A stretch of DNA of 22,489 bases from a virus (lineage: Duplodnaviria; Heunggongvirae; Uroviricota; Caudoviricetes), in the IMG/VR virus record IMGVR_UViG_2778261588_000007, positions 1-22,489 of that record; one strand, 5' to 3'. Positions 2,633 to 21,406 of the stretch are shown here, one piece after another. The translations under genes and the position numbers were made by a program. The first letter of the stretch is position 1. The number at the start of each line of letters is the position of its first letter. The notes under the pieces were generated by a model. That model ran no database searches, was not told the DNA's origin, and worked only from the letters and a program-made list of their open reading frames with translations.

Positions 2633-4798
2633 ATGGCCGACGAAAACAGACTCAATTCCATTCTGTGTAAGTTTGACGCAGACTGGATGGCGAGCGATGA
2701 AGCCAGAACCGAGGCGACAAATGACCTGTATTTTAGCCGAGTGTCGCAATGGGATGACTGGCTATCAAACTACACGACTCTGCAATATCGCGGACAATTC
2801 GATGTTGTTCGCCCGGTGGTCAGGAAACTGGTCGCAGAGATGCGCCGGAACCCTATCGACGTTCTCTTCCGACCCAAAGACGGTGCTAATCCTGATGCAG
2901 CCGATGTGTTGATGGGGATGTATCGTACTGATATGCGCCATAACACGGCAAAGATTGCCGTTAACGTTGGCGTTCGTGAGCAGATAGAGTCCGGCGTTGG
3001 TGCATGGCGTCTGGTCACGCAGTACGAAGACAACGATCCAACAAGCAACAATCAGGTAATCCGACGCCTTCCAATCCATGAAGCCTGCTCACACGTCATA
3101 TGGGACGCCAATAGCAAGCAGATGGATAAGAGCGACGCTAAGCATTGCACGGTGATTAACGCCTTGTCGCGCAATGGCTGGAAAGAGTTCGCAGAGGATT
3201 ACGGTATTGATCCGGATGCCTTGCCATCTTTCCAGAATCCGAACGATACATGGCTGTTTCCGTGGGTATCGAATGATGTCGTCTACGTCGCTGAGTATTA
3301 CGAGGTCGAAGAGAAGAAGGAGAAAGTCTTCATCTACCGCGACCCGCTGACAGGTGAGCCGGTCAGCTATTACCAGCAGGATATCAAAGACGTCATCGAC
3401 GACCTGGCTAATCGTGGATTCATTAAGGTAGCAGAGCGTAAGGTGAAGCGTCGTCGTGTGTATAAGTCGATCATCACCTGCACGCAGATACTGAAAGACC
3501 GAGAAAAGATAGCCGGAGAGCATATCCCAATCGTTCCAGTGTATGGAGAATGGTCATTCGCTGGTGACAAGGAGTGCTACGAGGGAGTGGTAAGGCTGAC
3601 GAAAGACGGTCAACGCCTTCGTAACATGATCATGTCGTTCAACGCCGATATTGTTGCTCGTTCACCGAAGAAGAAACCGACCTTCTTCCCTGAGCAAATC
3701 GAAGGCTACGAATACATGTACGGTGGAAATGATGACTATCCGTACTATCTGCAGAACAGGACCGATGAAAACGGTAACGACCTGCCGATTGGTCCAATCT
3801 CCTACATGGAAAACCCTGAAGTGCCGCAAGCCAACGCTTACATGCTTGAGGCTGCCACCAACGCAGTGAAAGAGGTGGCTAGTCTTGGCGTGGATGCGCA
3901 GGCGGCAAACTCTCAGGTCGCTTTCGATACCGTCAATCAACTGAACATGCGGGCAGACCTTGAGACATACGTGTTTCAGGATAACCTGGCTACCGCAATG
4001 CGACGTGATGGCGAGATTTATGCCTCAATGGTCAACGATATTTATGACGTTCCTCGTCATGTAACGCTGACACTTGAAGATGGTAGCGAGAAAGACGTTC
4101 AACTCTACGCGCAAGTTGTAGATTACCAGTCCGGTAATGTGGTCACACTCAACGACATTCGCGGTCGCTATGAGTGCTATACAGACGTTGGGCCATCCTT
4201 CCAGAGCATGAAGGAACAGAACCGCGCAGAGATTCAGGAGTTACTCACCAAGGTTCCGCAAGGTACTCCAGAGTTCCAGATGCTGATGCTGCAATACTTC
4301 ACGCTGCTTGACGGTAAAGGCGTTGAGATGATGCGAGAGTACGCGAACAAGCAACTGGTGATGATGGGGCTGAAGAAACCAGAAACACCTGAAGAGATGG
4401 AGATGGTACAGCAGGCACAACAACAGCCGCAGCAGCCATCAGCAGAGCAAATTCAGGCGCAGGGTATCCTTCTGCAAGGTCAGGCTGAATTGCTCAAGGC
4501 AGAGAACCAACAGGCGCAGATTCAGGTTGAAGCTGCCAAGGTTGAAGCCCAAAACCAACTCAACGCCGCGAAGATTGCAGAAATCTTCAACAATATGGAC
4601 CTCGACAAGCAGGCAGAACTGCGTGAGTACCTCAAGCTCGTAGGTCAATTCCAGCAACAGCGCAGCAAAGATGCTCGTGCTAACGCTGAGCTGCTTCTTA
4701 AAGATGCAGACCAGACTCATTCACAACGCATGGATTTCGCGAATCTTATGCGTCAAGTTCAAATCCCCTCCGGCGGAGTAGCCGAGACACCTCAATAA
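2633..4798 (+). CDS. portal protein (P22 gp1 homolog)
   Basis: 721 aa; N-terminus [55 protein letters not shown] and C-terminal Q-rich barrel region closely match remembered P22 gp1 (725 aa). Confidence 0.95.
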
Positions 4799-5723: not shown

Positions 5724-7018
5724 TGGCATTAAATGAAGGTCAACTGGTCACGTATGCTCTAGATGAAATCATCGAAACCGTCCAGAACCTGACGCCAATG
5801 GCGTCCAAAGTGACAAAATACACCCCTCCGGCAGAATCCATGCAGCGTTCAAGCAACACCGTGTGGATGCCTGTTGAGCAGGAAGCGCCAACCCAGACTG
5901 GCTGGGATTTAACTGGCAACGCAACCGGGATTCTGGAACTCTCCGTGAAATGCAACATGGGCGATCCGGATAACGATTTCTTCGAGCTTCGTGCAGATGA
6001 CCTGCGTGATGAGCGTTCTTACCGTCGTCGCATCCAGGCATCCGCCAAAAAACTGGCGAATAACATTGAGTCAGCAATTGCAAAACAGGCAACTGAAATG
6101 GGCTCGCTTGTTGTTCACGATACCCGCGCAATTGGTCCATCTACTGGCCTGTCTGGCTGGGATTTTGTGTCTGATGCAGAGCGCCTGATGTTCTCCCGTG
6201 AGCTAAACCGCGATATGGGCATCAGTTACTTCCTGAACCCTGACGATTACCGCAAAGCAGGCCGCAACCTGGTAGATGGTGACATCTTCGGGCGCGTTAC
6301 TGAAGACGCGTATCACAACGGTACTATTCAGCGTCAGATTGCTGGCTTTGATGAAATTCTTCGCTCACCGAAACTTCCCGCAGTTACCAAGTCAACCGCT
6401 ACTGGTGTAACTGTTTCTGGTGCGCAGAAGTTTAAGCCGCAGGCATACACCCTTGATACCGATGGTAACAAAGAGAACGTCGATAACCGTGTTGCAACGG
6501 TGACCGTATCCTCCACCACCGGATTTAAGCGCGGCGACAAAATCAGCTTCACTGGTGTGAAATTCCTGTCTCAGATGGCGAAGAACGTGCTGACTGATGA
6601 TGCGACTTTCTCAATCACCCGTGTGATCGATGGTACTCACATCGAAATCACGCCGAAGCCGATTGCGCTGGATGACGCGTCACTGACAAAAGAAGAGAAG
6701 GCTTACGCTAACGTAAACACCTCTCTTGCTGATACCACTCCGGTAAACGTTCTGAACGTGGCAACAACCACCGCTAACGTGTTCTGGGCTGATGACTCAA
6801 TCCGCCTGCTGTCTCAGCCGATCCCGGTAACCCATGAACTGTTTGCTGGCATGAAAACGTCTTCCTTCAGCATTCCTGGTATTGGTGTTAACGGCATCTT
6901 CGCAACGCAGGGCGATATCAACACTCTGTCTGGTAAGTGCCGTATTGCTGTGTGGTATTCAGCATGTGCTGTACGACCAGAGGCAATTGGTGTTGGTCTG
7001 CCTAACCAGACTGCGTGA
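5723..7018 (+). CDS. major capsid (coat) protein (P22 gp5 homolog)
   Basis: 431 aa (P22 gp5 is 430 aa); start overlaps the scaffold stop (TAATG); followed by a strong intrinsic terminator. Confidence 0.9.
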
Positions 7019-11086: not shown

Positions 11087-12553
11087 ATGGCTACTTGGCA
11101 AGGATCAAATGGCGGATTGTTGGCTGGTATCGGTGGCGTCAACTCAAACGCTCCGAGCGTAAATGACATCGGCAATACGCTTCAGATTATCAGGCAGAAC
11201 AATGATATTGAGCGTTCAGGCGCTAACAATGTTGGTCTTACTGCTTTGCAAGGCCTTTCAGGTATTGCGGGGGTGTTTCAGCAGGAAAAGCAGGCTCAGC
11301 GGCAGAAAGAATTTCAGCAGGCATACGCTAATGCTTATGCGTCTGGTGATCGCGGTGCTTTGCGTCAGTTGGCTACTCAATATCCAGACCAGATTGAATC
11401 CGTTCGTAAAGGCATGGGATTCATTGATGAAGACCAGCGTAATTCTATCGGCACCTTAGCGGCTGGCGCACGCCTTGCGTCATCGTCTCCAGAAGCAATG
11501 CAATCATGGCTGCAAAACAACGCCAAGGAACTGACTCGCGTCGGTGTTGACCCTAACAGTGTTGCTCAGATGTATCAGCAGAACCCTTCAGGATTTGGTG
11601 AGTTTGTTGATCACCTTGGAATGGCTGCTCTTGGTCCGATTGATTACTTCAATGTTCAGGACAAGATGGCTGGTCGTGAGATTGACCGAGGCAGACTGGC
11701 AGAGACAATCCGCAGCAATCAGGCCAGCGAAGCACTTCAGGCGAGAGGGCAGGATATTAGCCGAGCAAATGCGTTAACGTCAGCATATGCACCAACAGCC
11801 GCAATGCAGAATTACAATCAGTACGCGCAAATGTTAAAGGCAGATCCAGATGGTGCAGCGGCATTTGCGGCAGCGGCGGGAATTAATCCCAATGCTAAGA
11901 AATTACTTAAGGTTGAAACCAATCCTGATGGCTCGGTAACTAAGTATTACACCGATGGCAGCGAGGAAGCCGGAAAACTAAACCAACCTATATCTGGTGA
12001 TGGCATTAAACCAATTAGCTTGCCACAAGCGCAAAGCATCATAGATAAGGCTAATGAGGGTTCCAAGAAGGCGGCAGGATTTGCTTTGCGATTAAAAGAT
12101 TCAATGGACTCAATGAATCAGCTTAGTAAAAGCATTGACCCTAAGCGAGTTGCATTAATAAATCGCTCTCTTGGTGATGGGACTATTGCAAATTTAAGCC
12201 TATCACCAGCGGAGCAGCAATATATGGTAAATGCGAGAGACGCATTGTATGCAATTTTGCGCCCAGAAACAGGTGCAGCAATTACTCTGCCAGAGATGCA
12301 GGAGTATTCCAAAATGTACCTGCCTCAGCCCGGTGATTCCAAGGCTGCTACTGAAACAAAAATGCGAAAAATGCAGGGCCAATATAACTCATTACGTGGT
12401 CAGTCTGGTCGCGTTTATGATGCTTTGGTGGTTTCAAGTGCTGCAAATAGTCAACAACAGAGCAATAGCCAACAACCGACAAATACCCAACAGCAGCAGA
12501 GTCAATCCGGATCATATACCTCAAAATCAGGCATTCAATTTACGGTGGAATGA
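11087..12553 (+). CDS. ejection protein, P22 gp20 homolog
   Basis: 488 aa; syntenic; Gly/Gln-rich low-complexity ends typical of ejection proteins. Confidence 0.8.
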
Positions 12554-14397
12554 TGAAAGTAACTGCAAACGGTAAGACATTTACCTTCCCTGATGGTACG
12601 AGCACGGAAGATATTGGCACCGCCATTGATGAGTATTTTGCTGGTCAGGCTGTTCAGCAACAAACAGTTAATCAGGCCAATAATGAACCAGCACGTGAAG
12701 AACCATCATTGATGCAACAAGCTGGCGATTGGCTCACAGGTGGTCAAAGTGCAGGGCAAATTGCAGAGCAGGCTGGTCGTGGTCTGGTAAACATACCATT
12801 TGACGTATTGCAGGGTGGCGCAAGTCTGATTAATGCAATCAGTCAGGGGCTTGGTGGGCCAAAAGTATTGGATGATGTCTATCGTCCAGTCGATCGACCG
12901 ACAGACCCTTATGCGCAAGCTGGAGAAACAATTGGCGGGTATTTAGTTCCAGGAGTTGGAACGGCAGGAAGCATGGCTATTGGATCACTGGCAGAGGCCG
13001 CAAATCAGAAAGGCGATTTCGCACAAAATGCAGCTAAAAATGCCGGAGTTAACCTTGCCGCTCAGGGTGTTCTTTCCGCAGCAGCAAAGGGAATAGGGCG
13101 TGGAATAACGGCTATAAAAGGTGATATTGCGCCAGAAGTGGCGAAGAAAATAGCCACATCAGAATCGATGGGTGTGACACCAATGACATCTGATGTTATC
13201 CCGCCGAAAAATGCTTTCACTCGCGGACTTACTCAGGATGCCGAGGGGGCTTTGCTCGGGACAGGCTCAAAGCGAGCGGAGCAATATGCAACGCGTAGTA
13301 AGCTGGTAAGCAATTATTTTGACCGTTTTGGTGAGTACAACCCTGATGATGTGGTGAAATCTCTGACCACCACGTTAAGGGGACGGAAGGATGCCGCTGG
13401 CGCTGTTATCAATGACGTCACCAATAAAATGGGTAATGCCGCAGTTGATACCACAAATACCATGAATGCTCTGAATACAGCGATCGCAAGACAGGAACGG
13501 CTTGGGACGTCTGCCAATCAAAGCCTGCTTACATCCTTGCGTAACCTACGTGAAGAATTAGCAAACCCTGCAACTGATTTGGATGTTACGTTTGATCTCT
13601 TGCGCCAGCACAGAACAGCATTTAGATCTAATGTTCAGGGAGATGCTATGGTCTTCCCCAACCAGGCAAAAGCAGCTACCAATATGGTAGAGAATGCAAT
13701 GTCAAAAGACCTTCGTAACGCAGTTGCAAAAAACCTCGGTGCGTCAGACGCAGCAAAATACCTTAAAGCAAATTCCGATTATGCAAACGTTTATAATAAG
13801 GTGCTTAATAAAAACATTGCTAACAAGCTCAACAAGGCAAGCAGTGAAGCCAGTCCTGAACTTATAAATACCGTTGTATTAAGCAGAAAACCATCTGACG
13901 TGAAACGAATCTGGAGCGCATTGGATGATAAAGGGAAAGATGCTATGCGTGCAGCTTACGTCAGCAAAATAGCGGAAAAGGCCGGTGACTCTCCAGCCAA
14001 GTTCATCACTGAAGTTAATAAGCTGAAATCTCAGTCAGGTGGTGAAATTTACAACACTATTTTTTCTGGAAAGCACATGAAAGAGCTTGATTCTCTTCAT
14101 GAAGTTCTACAGCAAACAGCAAGGTCAGACACCGCAAATGTAGTAACTCAGACGGGGCAATCGCAAGCCAACAGGATAAGGACGATTGGCGCAACTGCGA
14201 CTCTTGGCGTATCAATGGGGCTTGAGGCTGGTTTCGGTGCAATGATGCGCTTGTATGAGTCCAAGGCAGCAAGGAATGCTCTCTTACGTTTGGCAAACAC
14301 CAAAGCAGGAACACCAGCCTATGAAAGAGCGCTAAATAATGCTGCAAATGCGATACGCCCTATACTTTCAAGCCAAATTACAGCAGAACAGCAATAA
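12550..14397 (+). CDS. ejection protein, P22 gp16 homolog
   Basis: 615 aa (P22 gp16 about 609 aa); ATGA overlap with gp20; last gene of the + strand late operon. Confidence 0.8.
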
Positions 14398-14411
14398 AAG
14401 ATAAGATATAA

Positions 14412-14897
14412 CTACCTGATATTACTGCTACTGTTGCATGTTACCGTGTTTCCAAATCCTGAATTGCAGTTTGTATATGTGTCAACGCGTGTTGGGTAAG
14501 GTTGAGTTATAACAGGCTGGCGCGCTTTTTGCTCGATCGCTTGCATTGTGTTTACAGCCTGATAATTCAATAAAGCCTGCTGGAATGATTGGCTTTGTGC
14601 TATTTGTTGGGCTTGTTCTTGGCTTTGTAATTGAACATAAAGATTCTGAAGCTCAAGTCTTGCCTGTGCGTCACTTATCTTGCCTTCATTGACACCTTGC
14701 CCGAGCATCTTTGCAGCAAGGACATACAGCTTAGGTGTTGGTGCTGATGCCATGCGTGAGTCGTTCTTCACACTGGCATCAAGGCAATTAGCCATATCGC
14801 TAAGCTTTTGATAGCGTTGTTCGCAACTTGCTTGATAGTCACTTACTTTTGCGCATCCAACCAGCAGAAGCGGGATAATTAACAGTGATTTTTTCAT
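14412..14897 (-). CDS. secreted lipoprotein of unknown function (candidate superinfection-exclusion factor)
   Basis: Start chosen at MKKSLLIIPLLLVGC (ATG at 14897) with AAGGAG about 9 nt upstream; lipobox L-V-G-C; mature part has a Gln-rich predicted helical segment and a C-terminal C-x9-C pair. Sits downstream of mnt on the same strand, at the position of sieA in P22. Confidence 0.7.
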   Translation of the reverse strand: MKKSLLIIPLLLVGCAKVSDYQASCEQRYQKLSDMANCLDASVKNDSRMASAPTPKLYVLAAKMLGQGVNEGKISDAQARLELQNLYVQLQSQEQAQQIAQSQSFQQALLNYQAVNTMQAIEQKARQPVITQPYPTRVDTYTNCNSGFGNTVTCNSSSNIR

Positions 14898-14967
14898 ATG
14901 GTTAACTCTCCTTAGTTTTTCACAGGATATCATGAAGGCTATGCCATTTTAGCCGGAAACTAGATTT

Positions 14968-15234
14968 CTATGTTTCCTTTTTATTATTGCTATACATGGT
15001 CTTAAGCGTTTCAAAAACCATTTTCTTAACCATATCAGATTGTTGTTCTGCCATACGCTCTGCATCGTCAATGTAAACGGATGCAGAGCTTTGTTTAGCC
15101 AATGATTCTTCAATCGCTGCAATTATCTCTGAGTTCAGCGACCTGTTATTCATCTTCGCACGCTGTTTAATTTTCGCGTGGAGTTCATGCGGAAGTCTCA
15201 AGTGAAACTGCGCCTCGTCGTATTTGCTGTACAT
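14968..15234 (-). CDS. mnt: Mnt-like ribbon-helix-helix repressor
   Basis: 88 aa from the internal ATG at 15234; FHLRLPHELHAKIKQRA..NRSLNSEII.AIEESLAK and DDAERMAEQQSDMVKKMVFETLK align with remembered P22 Mnt (83 aa) along its whole length. Confidence 0.8.
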   Translation of the reverse strand: MYSKYDEAQFHLRLPHELHAKIKQRAKMNNRSLNSEIIAAIEESLAKQSSASVYIDDAERMAEQQSDMVKKMVFETLKTMYSNNKKET

Positions 15235-15355
15235 CCTTGATGCCTCACCAGTTGGGTGGAATGGCATCGTAACCTACTGGATAAATACTCAATAGTACCA
15301 TTTCGGTATGCAATCACATCATGGTTGCATCATATCATTCGTCTGGAGCAATGAA
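15235..15355. promoter_or_regulatory. divergent intergenic region between mnt and tailspike; probable promoters and operator
   Basis: 121 bp non-coding; imperfect inverted repeats CCAGTTGG...CCTACTGG (15247-15279) and TGCAATCA...TGGTTGCA (15309-15329); tailspike RBS GGAG at 15345-15348. Confidence 0.35.
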
Positions 15356-17224
15356 ATGTCAGATATCACCGCAAACTTAGTGGTAGGGATGCCTGCGCAG
15401 CTTTTCACGCTGGCACGCTCATTTAAAGCAAATGCCAACGGTAAAATCTATCTTGGGCTACCAGATACCGACCCTACAATCCCAGCGAATCAAATCCCTG
15501 TTTATATTGAAAGTGAAACTGGAGATCTGATTCCGACTGCTCAGCCGATAGTCATTAACGCGGGTGGGTATCCTGTTTACAACGGGCAGATATCAAAGTT
15601 CGTTACTGTGCAGAATTACAGCATGGCTGTTTACGACGCCTATGGATCGCAGCAGTTCTACTTCCCTGACATTGCAAAATACGACCCAGATAAGTTAAGG
15701 CAACAGCTTGAAGGGAGCAATGGCGCTGGATTAGTTGGATTCGATAAATCAGTTGATTACGCAGATGATACGGTTGGGGGTACGCTAAAAAATGTTATAT
15801 TCGTCAATCCTGATATGTATACAACATTACAGGATGCGATTGATTATGCCGCATCTTTAACCGGGCTAGAGCACTCCCCAAGCACTGCTGCTGGTCATCC
15901 AGACTGGATACAACCAAATACTGTATGCAAAGTTGTCAGATTAAATGGAAAGAAATACCCCATAAACACAACATTACATGTTTACGGTGATGTAAGCATA
16001 GATGCAGAATTTGGAGGGGTATATCTCACGGATGACTTCATAGCGGATTCTTCTGGGTATGCTGTTAAATGCGATAAAGGAACAGGTAATCAATACGCTG
16101 GGCACATTAGCAATCTTTTAATTGACGCCCGCGCAAAGACTGTTAATGGATTTAAAATATCTGATGGTTATGCCAACAAGTTAGATGGTATTTACGTAGC
16201 CAACGTTGATGGTCATGGCATTCATATCGCTGGCGGCATGGGTGTTCATCTCATGAAGTTTTACGCGGTAGGTGTATTAAAACCTACGAACCCCCTAAGT
16301 CAAGCCCATATTATTGAAGGCAGCGACCATCAGGTAAGCATGGGTGAAGGTCGTTATTTCCGATTTGGGACGTGGGTGAGGGGTGGCGGTAACAATCGTA
16401 TCGATAAAGTACATAACTGGGGTATGTATGACGACTCGGTAGCTGACCAAAACTCAAGAATGAAGTGTTGCTTTGTTGTGCAAAACTCGATAAACAACTC
16501 ATTCAACCAATGCTTTGCAGACTCTCCGTCAAAATGGGACTACACGAAGGCTAATTTAGATTCGGTAGATGGTTATATTAACGGCGGTATTGGTTTCTTT
16601 GTCGATTCGGGAGCATCGGGTAATACGTTTTCTCAATGTCAGACATTCGTGAATATGAATGCATTCAATGCTGCGGGACTGTCTTCTTACACTGCATCAT
16701 TAATGCCGTTTGCCGTTGGTAGCGTTAACTGCTCATTTGTTGAGTGTGGAAACTCAAACTCACCAGCATGGACAGCAAGGTTGATAAACCATATTTACTC
16801 TATAGACCAGTCGTTTACAAACATCCTGGCAGCTAAGAACTTTGTTGGGATAGAGTACGATATGTTTAGCAATAGCACAATTTTTAGGAGAAGCGTAGGT
16901 GTTCCCCTGCTTGTAGCGTCTCCGAAATTTGACACCCCCGGTGCATCGTATGCGCCTGACTTTTCTAATGCAGCGTATGTGTCAGCAACGGTAACTGGCG
17001 ATGTAACAATAACCCCAGCAGCATTGTCAAATGCGTTAACTGGGTATGTAGAAGTTACATTAGCTGTTTATTCGGCGGCATCAAAAACAATAACATTCGG
17101 GTCTAACGTTAAACTTGCATCAAATACACCGTCGCTTTCATTTTCAGGAACGCAGGTATTTAGGCTTTCAACAATAAACGGCGGCACTCAATGGTTTTGC
17201 AGACTTATTGCTAACTACACATAA
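15356..17224 (+). CDS. tailspike protein: P22 gp9-like head-binding N-terminal domain fused to a divergent receptor-binding domain
   Basis: Start at ATG 15356 ([43 protein letters not shown]), 622 aa. The first ~115 residues match P22/Sf6 tailspike N-termini; the remainder has no P22 similarity I can recognise. Confidence 0.9.
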
Positions 17225-17257: not shown

Positions 17258-18685
17258 TTAACAAACTCTATCGCCATACACGACGATAATATCTTCACCA
17301 ATTTTAAATACATTATAATATCTTGTTTTTATTATTGGTGATGATTTTTTTTCACAAACCTCATTTAACTTGTTAACTTGTACTGTTTTTATCCATGGTG
17401 CCAAATTCTTAACACTTAATTGCTGCATCATTGATACAGCAATCCATGGTACAGCAGGGCTATACACAAATTTGAGGAACGGTGTTGCCTCAATCATTTT
17501 CCAAGTAATAGGAGAGTCGTATATCCTTCCATAAGTGTATACCTCGCCGTTAAAGTCAAGCCTTCCCAAATCATTAGCCACCATCTCCATGACAAATTCC
17601 TCATATTTCCTTTGCTCTTTTATGGCATTTGAAAATTGGAATGAAGTGGTTATGGTGATAAACAACATTACTACAGAAATAAAATAAAAAGATTTTTTTC
17701 CGAATAATTTATATATGGAAAAAATAACTATCGCTATGGATGCTGACGCGCCTGATAGAACCCTTATATCTGTAATCCCTTCCTTTAATAAAAATGCTGG
17801 TCCAGGCAATGCTAATAATAGCGCTAATGGTGATAATAAATTGGATGAGCACTCTAAAAACCCTAGGGATAACTGATGTTTGACCTTTTTAACATAACAA
17901 ACAAAATAGGATAACAATCCAATGTAAACAGGAATCAAAAAAGATATCCCAATGGGTTCTATATATTTAAAAGTCTTATTAATAGATTCATAAAGAGATG
18001 ATGGTATGTCTGCGAATGACACCATTATAGATCTATTGTCAGCACCATATTTCATTATATAAAACATAGTGACATAATATAATGCATATGTTACTACGAA
18101 TGTCAGTGCAAGATGATATGATTTGTTTTTCCCATTACCAAATAAAGCATTGTATGCAATTAATGATATAAATATGTTTGCGCAAGGCTGGTATAAGCTT
18201 AAGCATGAAAATAAAGAAACAATGGATAATAATGACTTTGGAAATGATCTAATGTCAAATACAAAGAATGACAGCATACATAATGAATTTGCTAAAATCA
18301 TCGTTAATGCGTCAAATTGAAAAGACACGTTTTGTATAAACAATGGACTCACAAAAATGATTGTGAGCATAATGGATATCTGCAGAGAGTCTTCTTTTTC
18401 AACAAGATAATTACAAATATAATAAATTATTGCTGATGCAATGAATATACCAAAGAACAACGGAAGAGGAGCAGCGCTTGGTAATAAATCAAAATTAAGA
18501 GAAAAAATATGCATTACAAAATCAGAAAGTGGCCTACCAAGCCCTCCCCATGCAGAAAATGAATATACAGACCTTGCCACATCATCCCTATAAAGGACAT
18601 CAGCAGACACTATTGGGTAACAAAATATAAATATAATTGATAATGGTATGTAAAAATATTTAGAATTAAACATTCCTATTTTCAC
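17258..18685 (-). CDS. type-specific O-antigen glucosyltransferase (GtrC / Gtr-type), polytopic membrane protein
   Basis: 475 aa, many predicted TM helices, strongly AT-rich coding sequence; start overlaps the gtrB stop; third gene of a gtrA-gtrB-gtr(type) operon. Confidence 0.8.
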
Positions 18686-19595
18686 CTTTCTTTAGTATGT
18701 ACTTTGGTCTTTTTTTGGTTTCTATGTATATGCGTCCAATGTATTCACCAAGGACACCAATCCCAATCAATTGAATGCCGCCAAGGAAAAGTATGGAAAC
18801 CAACAGTGACGGGTATCCAGGAACACTATTACCGAAAAGAATCTTATCTAAAATCATCCACGCGCCATAAATGAATGACAGGCTGGCGACAGCAAGTCCG
18901 ATGTATGTCCACATGCGCAATGGGAAAGTTGAGAAGCTTGTTATGCCTTCCAGTGCCAGATTCCATAGCTTCCACCCATTGAATTTTGAGTTGCCGGCAA
19001 CGCGTTCAGCTCTTGCATACTCAACAACATCAATTTTACCGCCAACCCATGACAAGACGCCTTTCATGAAAAGATTGCGCTCAGGAAGCAATTTAATGTT
19101 TTCAACAACTTCTCGCGACATCAGGCGAAAATCACCCACGTTCTCTTCGATTTTTGGGTTGCTAATCTTGTTGTGTAGCTTATAGAACCACTCAGCCGAT
19201 TTGCGCTTTAGCCTTCCATCGGTAGATCGGTCTGTTCTCTTAGCCAGAACCATATCAGCGCCATCCTGCCATTTTTGAATGAGGTGAGGGATGACATTGA
19301 TAGGGTCTTGCAGATCAACATCAATTGGAATGACCGCTTCCCCGGTTGCATTATCAAGCCCTGCAAACAGGGCTGGTTCTTTACCAAAGTTTCGTGTAAA
19401 TGACAGCGGAACAACTAGAGGATCTGAAACGGACAGAGCGTTAATGATTGACTCCGTAGCGTCTTTGCTACCATCATTTATAAAAACAATTTCCACTTCA
19501 TATGGCTTCAACTCTTCGAATTCACGTACCGTTTTATAAAAAATAGGTATCGCTTCCTCTTCGTTGAAGACAGGAACGACCAGAGATATCTTCAT
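18666..19595 (-). CDS. gtrB: bactoprenol glucosyltransferase GtrB (GT2 family)
   Basis: 309 aa; N-terminal GT-A fold signatures ([25 protein letters not shown]) and two C-terminal TM helices; high similarity to remembered GtrB/YfdH. Confidence 0.9.
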
Positions 19596-19954
19596 TTCGC
19601 ATCCCTAAAGACAATGAACTTTGAATAGACGAAACCGCACACTAGGCTGATGGCGGAGAAGGTGACAAGAGTGACAATTGGAGGAAGTGCACATTTATCG
19701 GCAGCCCATCCAACAGTAGCACTCAGTGTTCCCATGAATCCTACATATAACATGTAGCGCATCGTTGTAGTCGAAGCTTTGAATGTGAATTTTGCATTCG
19801 CGAAGAAGCTAAAGCTCACAGCCACAACGAAACCTGCGAAGTTTGCAAGAGCCTGATTGGTGTGCGCGGCATAGATACATACACCAAAAACCACCCAATG
19901 TATAAGTGTGTTCAGCACACCAATCGAGGTGTACTTTGCAAATAGCTTTAACAT
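19592..19954 (-). CDS. gtrA: GtrA flippase-like small membrane protein
   Basis: 120 aa, four predicted TM segments; [20 protein letters not shown]... matches GtrA/YfdG; ATGA overlap with gtrB. Confidence 0.9.
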
Positions 19955-20100
19955 TTCTTCTATCAGCTAATAATCAAAGGCATGAAGTCTATCATCCAAG
20001 CATCAATCGATCGATGACTTGCTGTGGTTGATGAGACAAAACTGAGATACACAAGGCTTTGTGACATTCGATAGTGGTTAAGGTCGATCACTCCACCTTT
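19955..20100 (-). promoter_or_regulatory. gtr operon promoter region, overlapping the 3' end of int; contains GATC sites and ATAG/TCGAT motifs
   Basis: GATC at 20009-20012 and 20086-20089; repeated TCGAT/ATAG-containing motifs (ATCGATCGATGA, TTCGATAGTGG, GGTCGATCACTCC). Confidence 0.35.
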
Positions 20101-21245
20101 TCATCAAGCCAGTCCGCCCACCACTGCATCATTTCTCTGCGCTTATCGAGATACTGAGCATGGTTGTAAATCCCACGCACAGATCCGCCGTTGGCATGTG
20201 CCAGTTGCACTTCAATAGCATCAGCAGGCCATTCGTGCTCGTTCATAATCGTGCTGAATTCATGCCTGAATCCGTGACCGCTTTCCAGACCCTCATAGCC
20301 GATTTGTTTGATCACAAGCAGTACCGCGTTCTCGCAGATTGGCTTCTTCTTATCGTTGCGCCCGGCAAAAACAAACTCTGATACTGGTTTGGTGATTGAG
20401 CTTAGCGTAGTGAGAAGTTCAACCACCTGGTCTGACATAGGAACCACATGAATTTTGCGTCCTTTCATCACACTGGCGTCGATGGTGATAATCCTGTTTT
20501 CAAAATCGACGTTCTTCCATAGCATGGAACGAAGCTCTTTCGTTCTTAGGGCTGTGTAGCGTAAAACTTTGGTCGCAATGAGCGATACGATACTTCCTGA
20601 AAATGTTGCCAGTGCTTTGTTGAATGCAGGGATCTGGTCTGCAGGAAGAAACGGGAAGTTCTTCTTGCGGTATCCCTTCATGGCGTCAGCAAGGTCAGGT
20701 GCCGGGTTATATTTAGCCCTACCAGTGACAATAGCGTAACGGAAAACCTCGCCGCATCTTCTGCGGGCTTTGTTGGCTCGCTCCATTGCACCGCGATCTT
20801 CAAATCTGCGGATTACTTCCAACAGTTGCATCGGCTCAATATCCTGAATCTCAAGACCGCCGATGATGGGTAAAATGTCGTCATCAAACATTTTGGCAAG
20901 TTCAGTTGCATAGCCTACTGACCAGACTTGCTTCTTGTGCTCGTACCATTCCTTGTAAATCGCACTAAAGGAATTGTTGTTAGACGAAGCCTTTTTCGCC
21001 TTTACCGGATCGATGCCAACCGAGATGTCTTTCCTCGCAGTCCATGCTTTATCCCTTGCCTCTTGCAAAGTCATAAGCGGATATTTTCCGACGGTCAGGA
21101 TTTTCTCCTTACCGTCAATCTTGTAGCGAAGCTGCCATACCTTTTTCCCGGATACAGGGACATAAAGGTACAGGCCATTACCATCGAGAAGGCGGTATGG
21201 TTTTTCTTTCGGCCTTGCTGCTTCAATCTGCTTAACGGTGAGCAT
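20088..21245 (-). CDS. int: tyrosine recombinase / prophage integrase (argW-associated, IntS-like)
   Basis: Start chosen at MLTVKQIEAARPKEK (ATG at 21245), 385 aa; C-terminal catalytic region GHGFRHEF...LAHANGGSVRGIYNHAQY (His-x-x-Arg and Tyr nucleophile); lies directly beside a tRNA gene. Confidence 0.9.
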   Translation of the reverse strand: MLTVKQIEAARPKEKPYRLLDGNGLYLYVPVSGKKVWQLRYKIDGKEKILTVGKYPLMTLQEARDKAWTARKDISVGIDPVKAKKASSNNNSFSAIYKEWYEHKKQVWSVGYATELAKMFDDDILPIIGGLEIQDIEPMQLLEVIRRFEDRGAMERANKARRRCGEVFRYAIVTGRAKYNPAPDLADAMKGYRKKNFPFLPADQIPAFNKALATFSGSIVSLIATKVLRYTALRTKELRSMLWKNVDFENRIITIDASVMKGRKIHVVPMSDQVVELLTTLSSITKPVSEFVFAGRNDKKKPICENAVLLVIKQIGYEGLESGHGFRHEFSTIMNEHEWPADAIEVQLAHANGGSVRGIYNHAQYLDKRREMMQWWADWLDEKVE

Positions 21246-21406
21246 GGGTAAAAATCCGGTGGGTAAAATTATTTTATCCACTTTTTACCCGTCATGGAGT
21301 GCGGCTGTCAACGATCTGACGCGAACCATTACGAACTGTTAATCTACGGAAGGCTTGATATTCAGGGGATTTTGCGGACTGGTACGGATGGGAGCGAACT
21401 GATAAA

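Follow-up and report, generated by a model that had tools for sequence, protein, structure and literature searches.

The variable region to which the locus described here belongs was named the "ant moron" by Villafane et al. 2008 (PMC2629481), and in P22 the transcripts from Pant extend into gene 9 (PMC2629481). A mnt-only gene content has been published for phages ST64T, ST104, Para1 and L (PMC2629481; bioRxiv 10.1101/2020.10.05.325894), and for phage L it was left open whether a Mnt without ant has "acquired another function or is a remnant" (bioRxiv 10.1101/2020.10.05.325894). The literature that we searched for mnt-only modules yielded no binding or transcript work. An earlier note on the present DNA proposed that Mnt either directly represses prophage-driven tailspike transcription or regulates itself together with a downstream lipoprotein gene; these alternatives are the question already posed for phage L. 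The arrangement is not new but a known and widespread variant of the P22 immI region: a mnt gene facing the tailspike gene, with no arc or ant, is also found in Sf101, IME10, VSe13, Gally, ST64T, ST160 and the Proteus phage Brookers as well as in at least 137 of 5,426 complete E. coli genomes, O26:H11 str. 11368 among them, and the module is common to phages of Escherichia, Shigella, Salmonella, Citrobacter, Serratia, Buttiauxella and Proteus.

The window, by which we mean the whole stretch of 22,489 nucleotides that was analysed, is a segment of a P22-like (Lederbergvirus) prophage, with the following layout around mnt:

12550-14397, plus strand: gp16-like ORF, which closes a run of virion assembly and ejection genes
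14412-14897, minus strand: lipoprotein gene, 161 aa (ORF and translation; PGAP has the same CDS)
14968-15234, minus strand: mnt homolog, 88 aa (Pfam and PDB matches)
15235-15355, no strand assigned: mnt-tailspike spacer of 121 bp, the reduced immI control region (from the gene boundaries)
15345-15348, plus strand: tailspike Shine-Dalgarno GGAG, 7 nt before the ATG at 15356 (read from the sequence)
15356-17224, plus strand: tailspike gene, 622 aa, with a P22-type head-binding N-terminal domain (Head_binding match, 8.6e-56)
17258-19954, minus strand: gtrC, gtrB and gtrA, after the tailspike gene
20088-21281, minus strand: integrase gene, after gtrA

The mnt and lipoprotein genes form a cassette between the gp16-like ORF and the tailspike gene, inside the late operon and on the opposite strand, and the same gene order occurs in VSe13, Sf101, ST64T, ST160, Gally and Brookers. 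The divergence of mnt from the tailspike gene across 121 bp, which the earlier note had described, was borne out by the Pfam and PDB matches and by the PGAP boundaries; the RefSeq/PGAP annotation of E. coli MLI106K1 places both gene boundaries identically and so has the same 121-bp spacer. Among relatives the spacer measures 109-148 bp, against 121 bp in the window; of the 92 loci that were compared first, 34 have a spacer identical to that of the window. The TCTGGAG ahead of the tailspike gene is kept in every spacer type.

Analysis of the window Mnt indicated an N-terminal ribbon-helix-helix domain (Pfam Arc, PF03869, 8.4e-15, residues 7-49) and a C-terminal Mnt tetramerisation domain (Pfam Repressor_Mnt, PF11423, 4e-12, residues 57-81), with matches to PDB 1mnt (5.7e-19, residues 6-78 aligned) and 1qey (1.2e-6), and the homolog is probably a tetramer, judging from these matches. 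Its beta-strand recognition residues Q9, H11 and R13 are the equivalents of H6, N8 and R10 of P22 Mnt. The start codon used here, M12 of the long mnt ORF, agrees with PGAP and with the 1mnt alignment, and the upstream ATG of that ORF is out of frame in Gally. Sf101_0014 (KJ832078) is mnt annotated as the longer ORF from the upstream ATG, under the name "putative chromosome segregation ATPase", and Mnt homologs are called "partition protein ATPase" in five RefSeq phage records (NC_002371, NC_004348, NC_011976, NC_014900 and NC_027398). Such ATPase-type names are misannotations of an Arc/Mnt-family repressor.

With P22 Arc, Ant, SieA, orf59a and immI DNA as queries, tblastn and blastn over the whole 22.5-kb window gave no match better than E = 0.1, which bears out the claimed absence of arc and ant; sar is not in the window either, and an Rfam scan gave nothing relevant. 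The window lacks the complete P22-type immI arrangement of arc, ant and sar downstream of Pant. Instead of overlapping divergent Pant and Pmnt promoters with the Arc operator between the hexamers, only the Pmnt-homologous hexamers are left, and the cis repression of Pant that characterizes the Mnt family has no counterpart in the window, where there is no ant or arc and no Pant-like promoter. The view of the region as a reduced immI region is supported, mnt being the sole immI gene in the window: it is a stripped-down P22 immI module, or "mnt-only ant moron", from which Pant, Oarc, arc, sar and ant have been lost, as read from the sequence comparison. One class C locus (L009, a Serratia marcescens contig) has no ant gene but still carries, in the stretch from the operator to the tail gene, an intrinsic terminator of the P22 ant type (AAGCCAGCC...GCTGGCTTTTTTT). 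The retained terminator directly supports an origin of mnt-only modules through internal deletion of arc and ant. In VSe13, an ORF annotated as "antirepressor protein" was considered as Ant and rejected, having no significant similarity to P22 Ant.

Within the spacer and at its tailspike-proximal border, the following elements were predicted:

15239-15268, no strand assigned: inverted repeat H1 (GATGCC-T-CACC-AGTTG-GGTG-GAAT-GGCATC), conserved, over the mnt ribosome-binding region
15292-15266, minus strand: leftward Pmnt-like promoter, -35 TTGAGT (15292-15287), 15-bp spacing, -10 TACGAT (15271-15266)
15294-15310, no strand assigned: candidate Mnt operator AGTACCATTTCGGTATG, core TACC-N5-GGTA (from positional homology, conservation and covariation)
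15308-15330, plus strand: inverted repeat H2, ATGCAATCA-CATCA-TGGTTGCAT, about 11 nt upstream of TCTGGAG, in the tailspike leader
15334-15362, minus strand: alternative leftward promoter-like site CTGACA-17-AATGAT, 8.9 bits, overlapping the tailspike start codon

The promoters were evaluated with a sigma-70 matrix that recovered the annotated P22 Pant at 16.8 bits and Pmnt at 14.4 bits. The Pmnt-like site of the window reaches 7.8 bits, which taken alone is background level (113 such matches in 45 kb); the score is low because 2 bp are missing between its hexamers, and the homologous site has 17-bp spacing in VSe13, ST64T, Gally and Brookers. In these reduced spacers the Pmnt-homologous position is the best leftward match (ST64T 10.7, Gally 11.8, Brookers 12.0 and VSe13 9.4 bits). 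A generic promoter and terminator scan returned a single weak leftward site in the spacer. The alternative site at 15362-15334, for which 55 such matches are found in 45 kb, has its -35 in tailspike codons 1-2 and a -10 that is weakened in a divergent 121-bp relative (L006), so that the case for it as a promoter is weak by sequence; if it were active, the operator would lie downstream of the start site and the regulatory logic would be altered.

Toward the tailspike gene the picture is different from P22. In every reduced spacer type, the segment that in P22 holds the strong TTGACA -35 of Pant and the Arc operator is replaced by H1, and the matrix predicted no rightward promoter above 7.5 bits in any of these spacers. 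If Mnt repressed a rightward spacer promoter that would otherwise drive tailspike expression in the prophage, as the first alternative of the earlier note holds, a trace of that promoter might be the Pant-like "ghost" ATGGCA-17-AATACT at 15261-15289 (7.0 bits), which is present in the 121-bp type and would place the start site inside the operator, and in P22 the Pant transcripts reportedly do read into gene 9. The ghost, however, scores at background level; it is confined to the 121-bp type, its hexamers being unconserved in the 135-bp class C type and in class B, and even some 121-bp variants have lost the key T at -7. As this proposal needs a rightward promoter and no Pant-like one survives, direct repression of the tailspike gene by Mnt is unlikely on the sequence, and we give it a distinctly small chance. 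No intrinsic terminator was predicted in 14300-15700, which fits late-operon read-through into the tailspike gene, as in P22.

The two imperfect palindromes reported in the spacer are both present where the earlier note placed them (arms 15248-15255/15273-15280 and 15309-15316/15322-15329, each with a 7/8 match), but neither goes beyond chance: at least one 8-nt repeat with one mismatch arose in 51-64% of shuffled 121-bp spacers, and the three matches observed arose in 16-29%. Because shuffling yields them so commonly, the palindromes are uninformative from a single sequence, and comparison with relatives is needed. The left arm of palindrome 1 falls in the loop of H1; in relatives it varies (CCAAATGG, CCAATTGG, CCAGGTGG) without a compensating change, and in class B spacers it is replaced. 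The right arm, CCTACTGG, is part of a CTACTG segment, which the P22 Arc operator likewise has in its right half. H1 itself is found in all mnt-only spacers (also upstream of mnt in L095, L004, L096 and L007) and is absent from full immI spacers. Its inner stem covaries between classes (CACTT/AAGTG, CGCTT/GAGTG, GTCC/GGAC), and in Brookers the outer stem is TTTGTC/GACAAA instead; the evidence on the strand is mixed, Gally favouring plus and L265 minus.

Palindrome 2, which corresponds to H2, behaves differently from a protein-binding site. Read on the plus strand, its pairing cells comprise 190 Watson-Crick, 22 G-U and 4 mismatched ones, versus 190, 1 and 25 on the minus strand; the substitutions run from U-G to C-G or U-A and from C-G to U-G. 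Pairing is kept in 97.5% of cells, a level attained in 7 of 500 shuffles, and one divergent relative has the compensated stem ATTCAAT/ATTGAAT. Because the substitutions keep pairing on the tailspike-sense strand alone, H2 reads as RNA and is probably a stem-loop in the tailspike leader rather than a protein operator, the evidence being moderate, as the sequences compared are closely related. P22-type leaders, for which P22 itself (L003, 3161-3177) and 57 leaders from the collected loci were compared, have a 7-bp hairpin of another sequence, CCGTAGC-CAY-GCTGCGG, similarly spaced (about 11-12 nt) from TCTGGAG and with the same strand bias; it lies inside the "boundary sequence" of the CUS-3 record. 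The recurrence of a leader hairpin with different sequences across spacer types suggests an RNA element. That the two palindromes might serve as operators for Mnt or another dimeric protein could be argued from their existence and from the maintenance of the second stem in relatives. We nevertheless regard this as extremely improbable, given that neither repeat exceeds chance in the single sequence, that arm 1 changes uncompensated, that G-U pairing kept on a single strand is not what binding of a protein to DNA would select for, and that the palindrome 2 segment is replaced by unrelated sequence in 135-bp class C spacers encoding the same Mnt recognition residues.

The best candidate for the Mnt operator, as judged from alignment, is instead the element at 15294-15310, which was not among the sites listed in the earlier note. 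A Mnt-family operator would be a two-fold symmetric element of about 17 bp next to Pmnt, and the window has a conserved, partly symmetric element at the homologous position, 1 bp from the -35 of the Pmnt-like promoter, as is Omnt in P22. The annotated P22 operator, AGGTCCACGGTGGACCT, directly follows CTCAAT, a hexamer that includes the Pmnt -35 in reverse complement, and this CAAT anchor is kept in every reduced spacer. In 65 unique class C sequences (245 loci), a conserved block spans 15290-15310 and collapses after 15311; conservation is at least 97% at 15295-15299, 15301-15303 and 15305-15308, and variation falls mainly on 15294 and on the symmetry-related pair 15300/15304 (operator positions 7 and 11). 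Beyond its 4-bp arms the window operator is a poor palindrome; relatives carry more symmetric forms (GTACCATTTTGGTAC, TACCGTTTCGGTA, ATACCATTTCGGTAT and GTACCTTAACGGTAC). After the anchor, class B spacers (ST64T, ST160 and Gally) read AAGACCAC-N-GTGGTCT and Brookers reads AAGACCACGGTGATAC. The expectation that the operator would differ from P22 Omnt held on comparison (AGTACCATTTCGGTATG against AGGTCCACGGTGGACCT, with residues Q/H/R against H/N/R), and over four Mnt classes the operator sequence covaries with the recognition residues, numbered as in P22:

P22 class: residues 6/8/10 are H/N/R, operator left half AGGTCCAC
L114 type: residues 6/8/10 are Q/K/R, operator left half TGAACCAC
Class B: residues 6/8/10 are Q/N/R, operator left half AAGACCAC
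Class C, including the window: residues 6/8/10 are Q/H/R, operator left half AGTACCAT

From this series, which comprises only four classes, base 4 seems to follow residue 6, and base 3 residue 8. Full immI modules that have the class B residues place the class B sequence between arc and a Pant-like promoter, at the position of Omnt, which supports the CAAT anchor. Nine such loci from IMG/VR (L364-L372), with a Pant-like promoter, Arc and a Q/N/R Mnt whose C-terminal region is different and longer, have the operator AAGACCACGGTGGTCTC, which is that of the mnt-only modules of ST64T and Gally. The operator site is single-copy in the complete Sf101 genome. Three more exact matches to TACC-N5-GGTA lie in the window, at 4124-4136, 6733-6745 and 13677-13689 (portal, coat and gp16-like genes), making four with the operator where about 0.04-0.3 would be expected; Sf101 has no extra copy. 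As operators the three intragenic matches were rejected, lacking the TTT centre and the operator flanks.

The possibility that mnt and its site have no function and simply remain from an immI region that was deleted, as raised for phage L (bioRxiv 10.1101/2020.10.05.325894), was assessed from the pattern of substitution. The dN/dS ratio over mnt residues 1-50, which cover the DNA-binding domain, is 0.05-0.09 against VSe13 and a Serratia relative, with dS saturated, and pN/pS among close relatives is 0.2. Of 180 loci from three classes, 177 have an intact ORF (88/89 class C, 69/71 class B and 20/20 Brookers-type), the operator core shows conservation of at least 97% next to variable flanks, and the module recurs in phages of the seven genera listed above, from Escherichia to Proteus. 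Occasional decay does occur: the sole class C pseudogene (L010, stop at codon 5) is mutated in its operator core as well, mnt is interrupted by stops in L183 and L184, and L052, from IMG/VR, has an Arg-to-Ile change at the residue equivalent to Mnt Arg10; the ant-type terminator kept in L009 likewise speaks for an origin by deletion. On balance these rates indicate that mnt is under purifying selection, and because of this it is not a decaying remnant; the leftover hypothesis is largely refuted by the selection data and appears very unlikely. In L052 we also observed an apparent IS end (TGGATTTGCCCC...), of unassigned family, 3 bp past the predicted operator, a case of joint decay with the Arg-to-Ile change in Mnt.

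Taken together, we lean towards a model, somewhat better than evenly probable in our estimation, in which the prophage expresses an autoregulated Mnt cassette and the tailspike gene is served by late read-through. Mnt, probably as a tetramer, would bind one operator at 15294-15310, and the abutting leftward Pmnt-like promoter (15292-15266) would express mnt from the prophage and, in the window phage, probably also transcribe the downstream lipoprotein gene. The regulated target would be the promoter of mnt itself, and such a self-regulating cassette is the most likely arrangement because this is the only promoter within the reach of Mnt. The autoregulation could be of either sign, since binding directly upstream of a -35 does not have to be repressive; P22 Mnt bound at the Omnt position reportedly does not shut off Pmnt. 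The tailspike gene, as the last gene of the late operon, would by analogy with P22 be transcribed by read-through across the antisense lipoprotein-mnt cassette, with a small sense-strand hairpin predicted at 15308-15330 in its leader.

The lipoprotein gene lies 70 bp downstream of mnt on the same strand and has a lipobox, LLVGC. Its product belongs to phrog_6067 (3.5e-109), a family without assigned function, and matched no Pfam, NCBIfam or PADLOC family. This family occupies the same position in P22-like phages of E. coli, Salmonella and Proteus (window 14412-14897; L096 2761-3237), and it follows mnt also in the Proteus phage Brookers. As the gene sits in the place of P22 sieA, it may be a superinfection-exclusion or surface-modifying moron. 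The suggestion that Mnt regulates itself and this lipoprotein is plausible for the window but does not hold generally: Sf101, with the same spacer and mnt, has no lipoprotein gene, and since nothing lies downstream of its mnt, expression of a moron is not the general reason for keeping the repressor.

A different reason, compatible with autoregulation, could be that Mnt is retained to act in trans, repressing the Pant-ant of incoming or co-resident P22-like phages of the same operator class and so protecting the prophage from antirepressor-driven induction. In support of this, purifying selection on mnt operates even where nothing lies downstream (Sf101), AAGACCACGGTGGTCTC and Q/N/R are common to full Pant-arc modules and mnt-only modules of class B, and the Proteus group shows the same pairing of full and mnt-only modules (Brookers versus L116 and L117). 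Ahead of arc or ant, however, no class C operator turned up: all of the approximately 245 class C loci are of the mnt-tailspike type, and a pattern search of IMG/VR, which required an arc-like start after the operator, gave just two chance matches, both in unrelated AT-rich phages. A role in trans against ant-carrying phages is plausible for class B on sequence grounds, and as an account of why mnt is kept we consider it unlikely, at about one chance in five. With similarly low expectation, we entertain the broader idea that the mnt-only module is a selected, self-contained device, an orphan repressor-operator pair diversified into at least three specificity classes that might protect the lysogen against the antirepressors of related phages or tune the late transcription reaching the tailspike gene, with the two conserved stem-loops as part of the control.

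The tailspike start itself may be a hotspot for the insertion of mobile endonucleases. In several loci (L034, L008, L107, L179 and others) the tailspike frame breaks after about 5 codons; past the break, L034 and L107 resemble, by inspection, an opposite-strand AP2/HNH-type endonuclease ORF, and Kapi1 has an annotated HNH endonuclease beside the tailspike gene.

Although the arrangement is ordinary for P22-like phages, we believe that its value lies in offering a clean test case. What is gained is a probable operator, relocated to 15294-15310, the loss of Pant at the sequence level, and evidence that mnt and its site are kept by selection. On the question posed for phage L, the data favour function over remnant, through purifying selection and protein-site co-evolution. 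The operator TACC-N5-GGTA is a falsifiable prediction, and the four classes supply a natural series of residue-to-base covariation for recognition by ribbon-helix-helix proteins.

In comparison with the P22 immI region, the window shares the Mnt fold and the tetramerisation helix, the location between gene 16 and gene 9 and an operator 1 bp from the Pmnt -35, but it has no Pant, Oarc, arc, sar, ant, sieA or orf59a, the operator and the recognition residues are changed, and H1 stands in for the Pant -35/Oarc segment. ST64T, ST104, Para1 and L resemble the window in that the module is flanked by the gene 16 homolog and the tailspike gene, and in a mnt that diverges from the tailspike gene without arc, ant or sar and is accompanied by a small accessory gene. 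The left half of the ST64T/L-type spacer is homologous to that of the window (H1 repeat, -10, CTACTG, CAAT box and operator), whereas ST64T and L have a Q/N/R Mnt with AAGACCACCGTGGTCTT and the window a Q/H/R Mnt with AGTACCATTTCGGTATG; the tailspike-proximal half is of the 121-bp type with H2 in the window and P22-type boundary sequence in the ST64T/L group, and the accessory gene is the phrog_6067 lipoprotein gene in the former and orf62 in the latter. Sf101 and IME10, together with E. coli prophages, have the same architecture as the window: in both phages Mnt has 90.5% identity, over mnt, spacer and tailspike N-terminus their DNA shows a match of about 85% to the window, and the 121-bp spacer of Sf101 (KJ832078) is identical to that of the window, although, unlike the window, Sf101 has no lipoprotein gene downstream of mnt.
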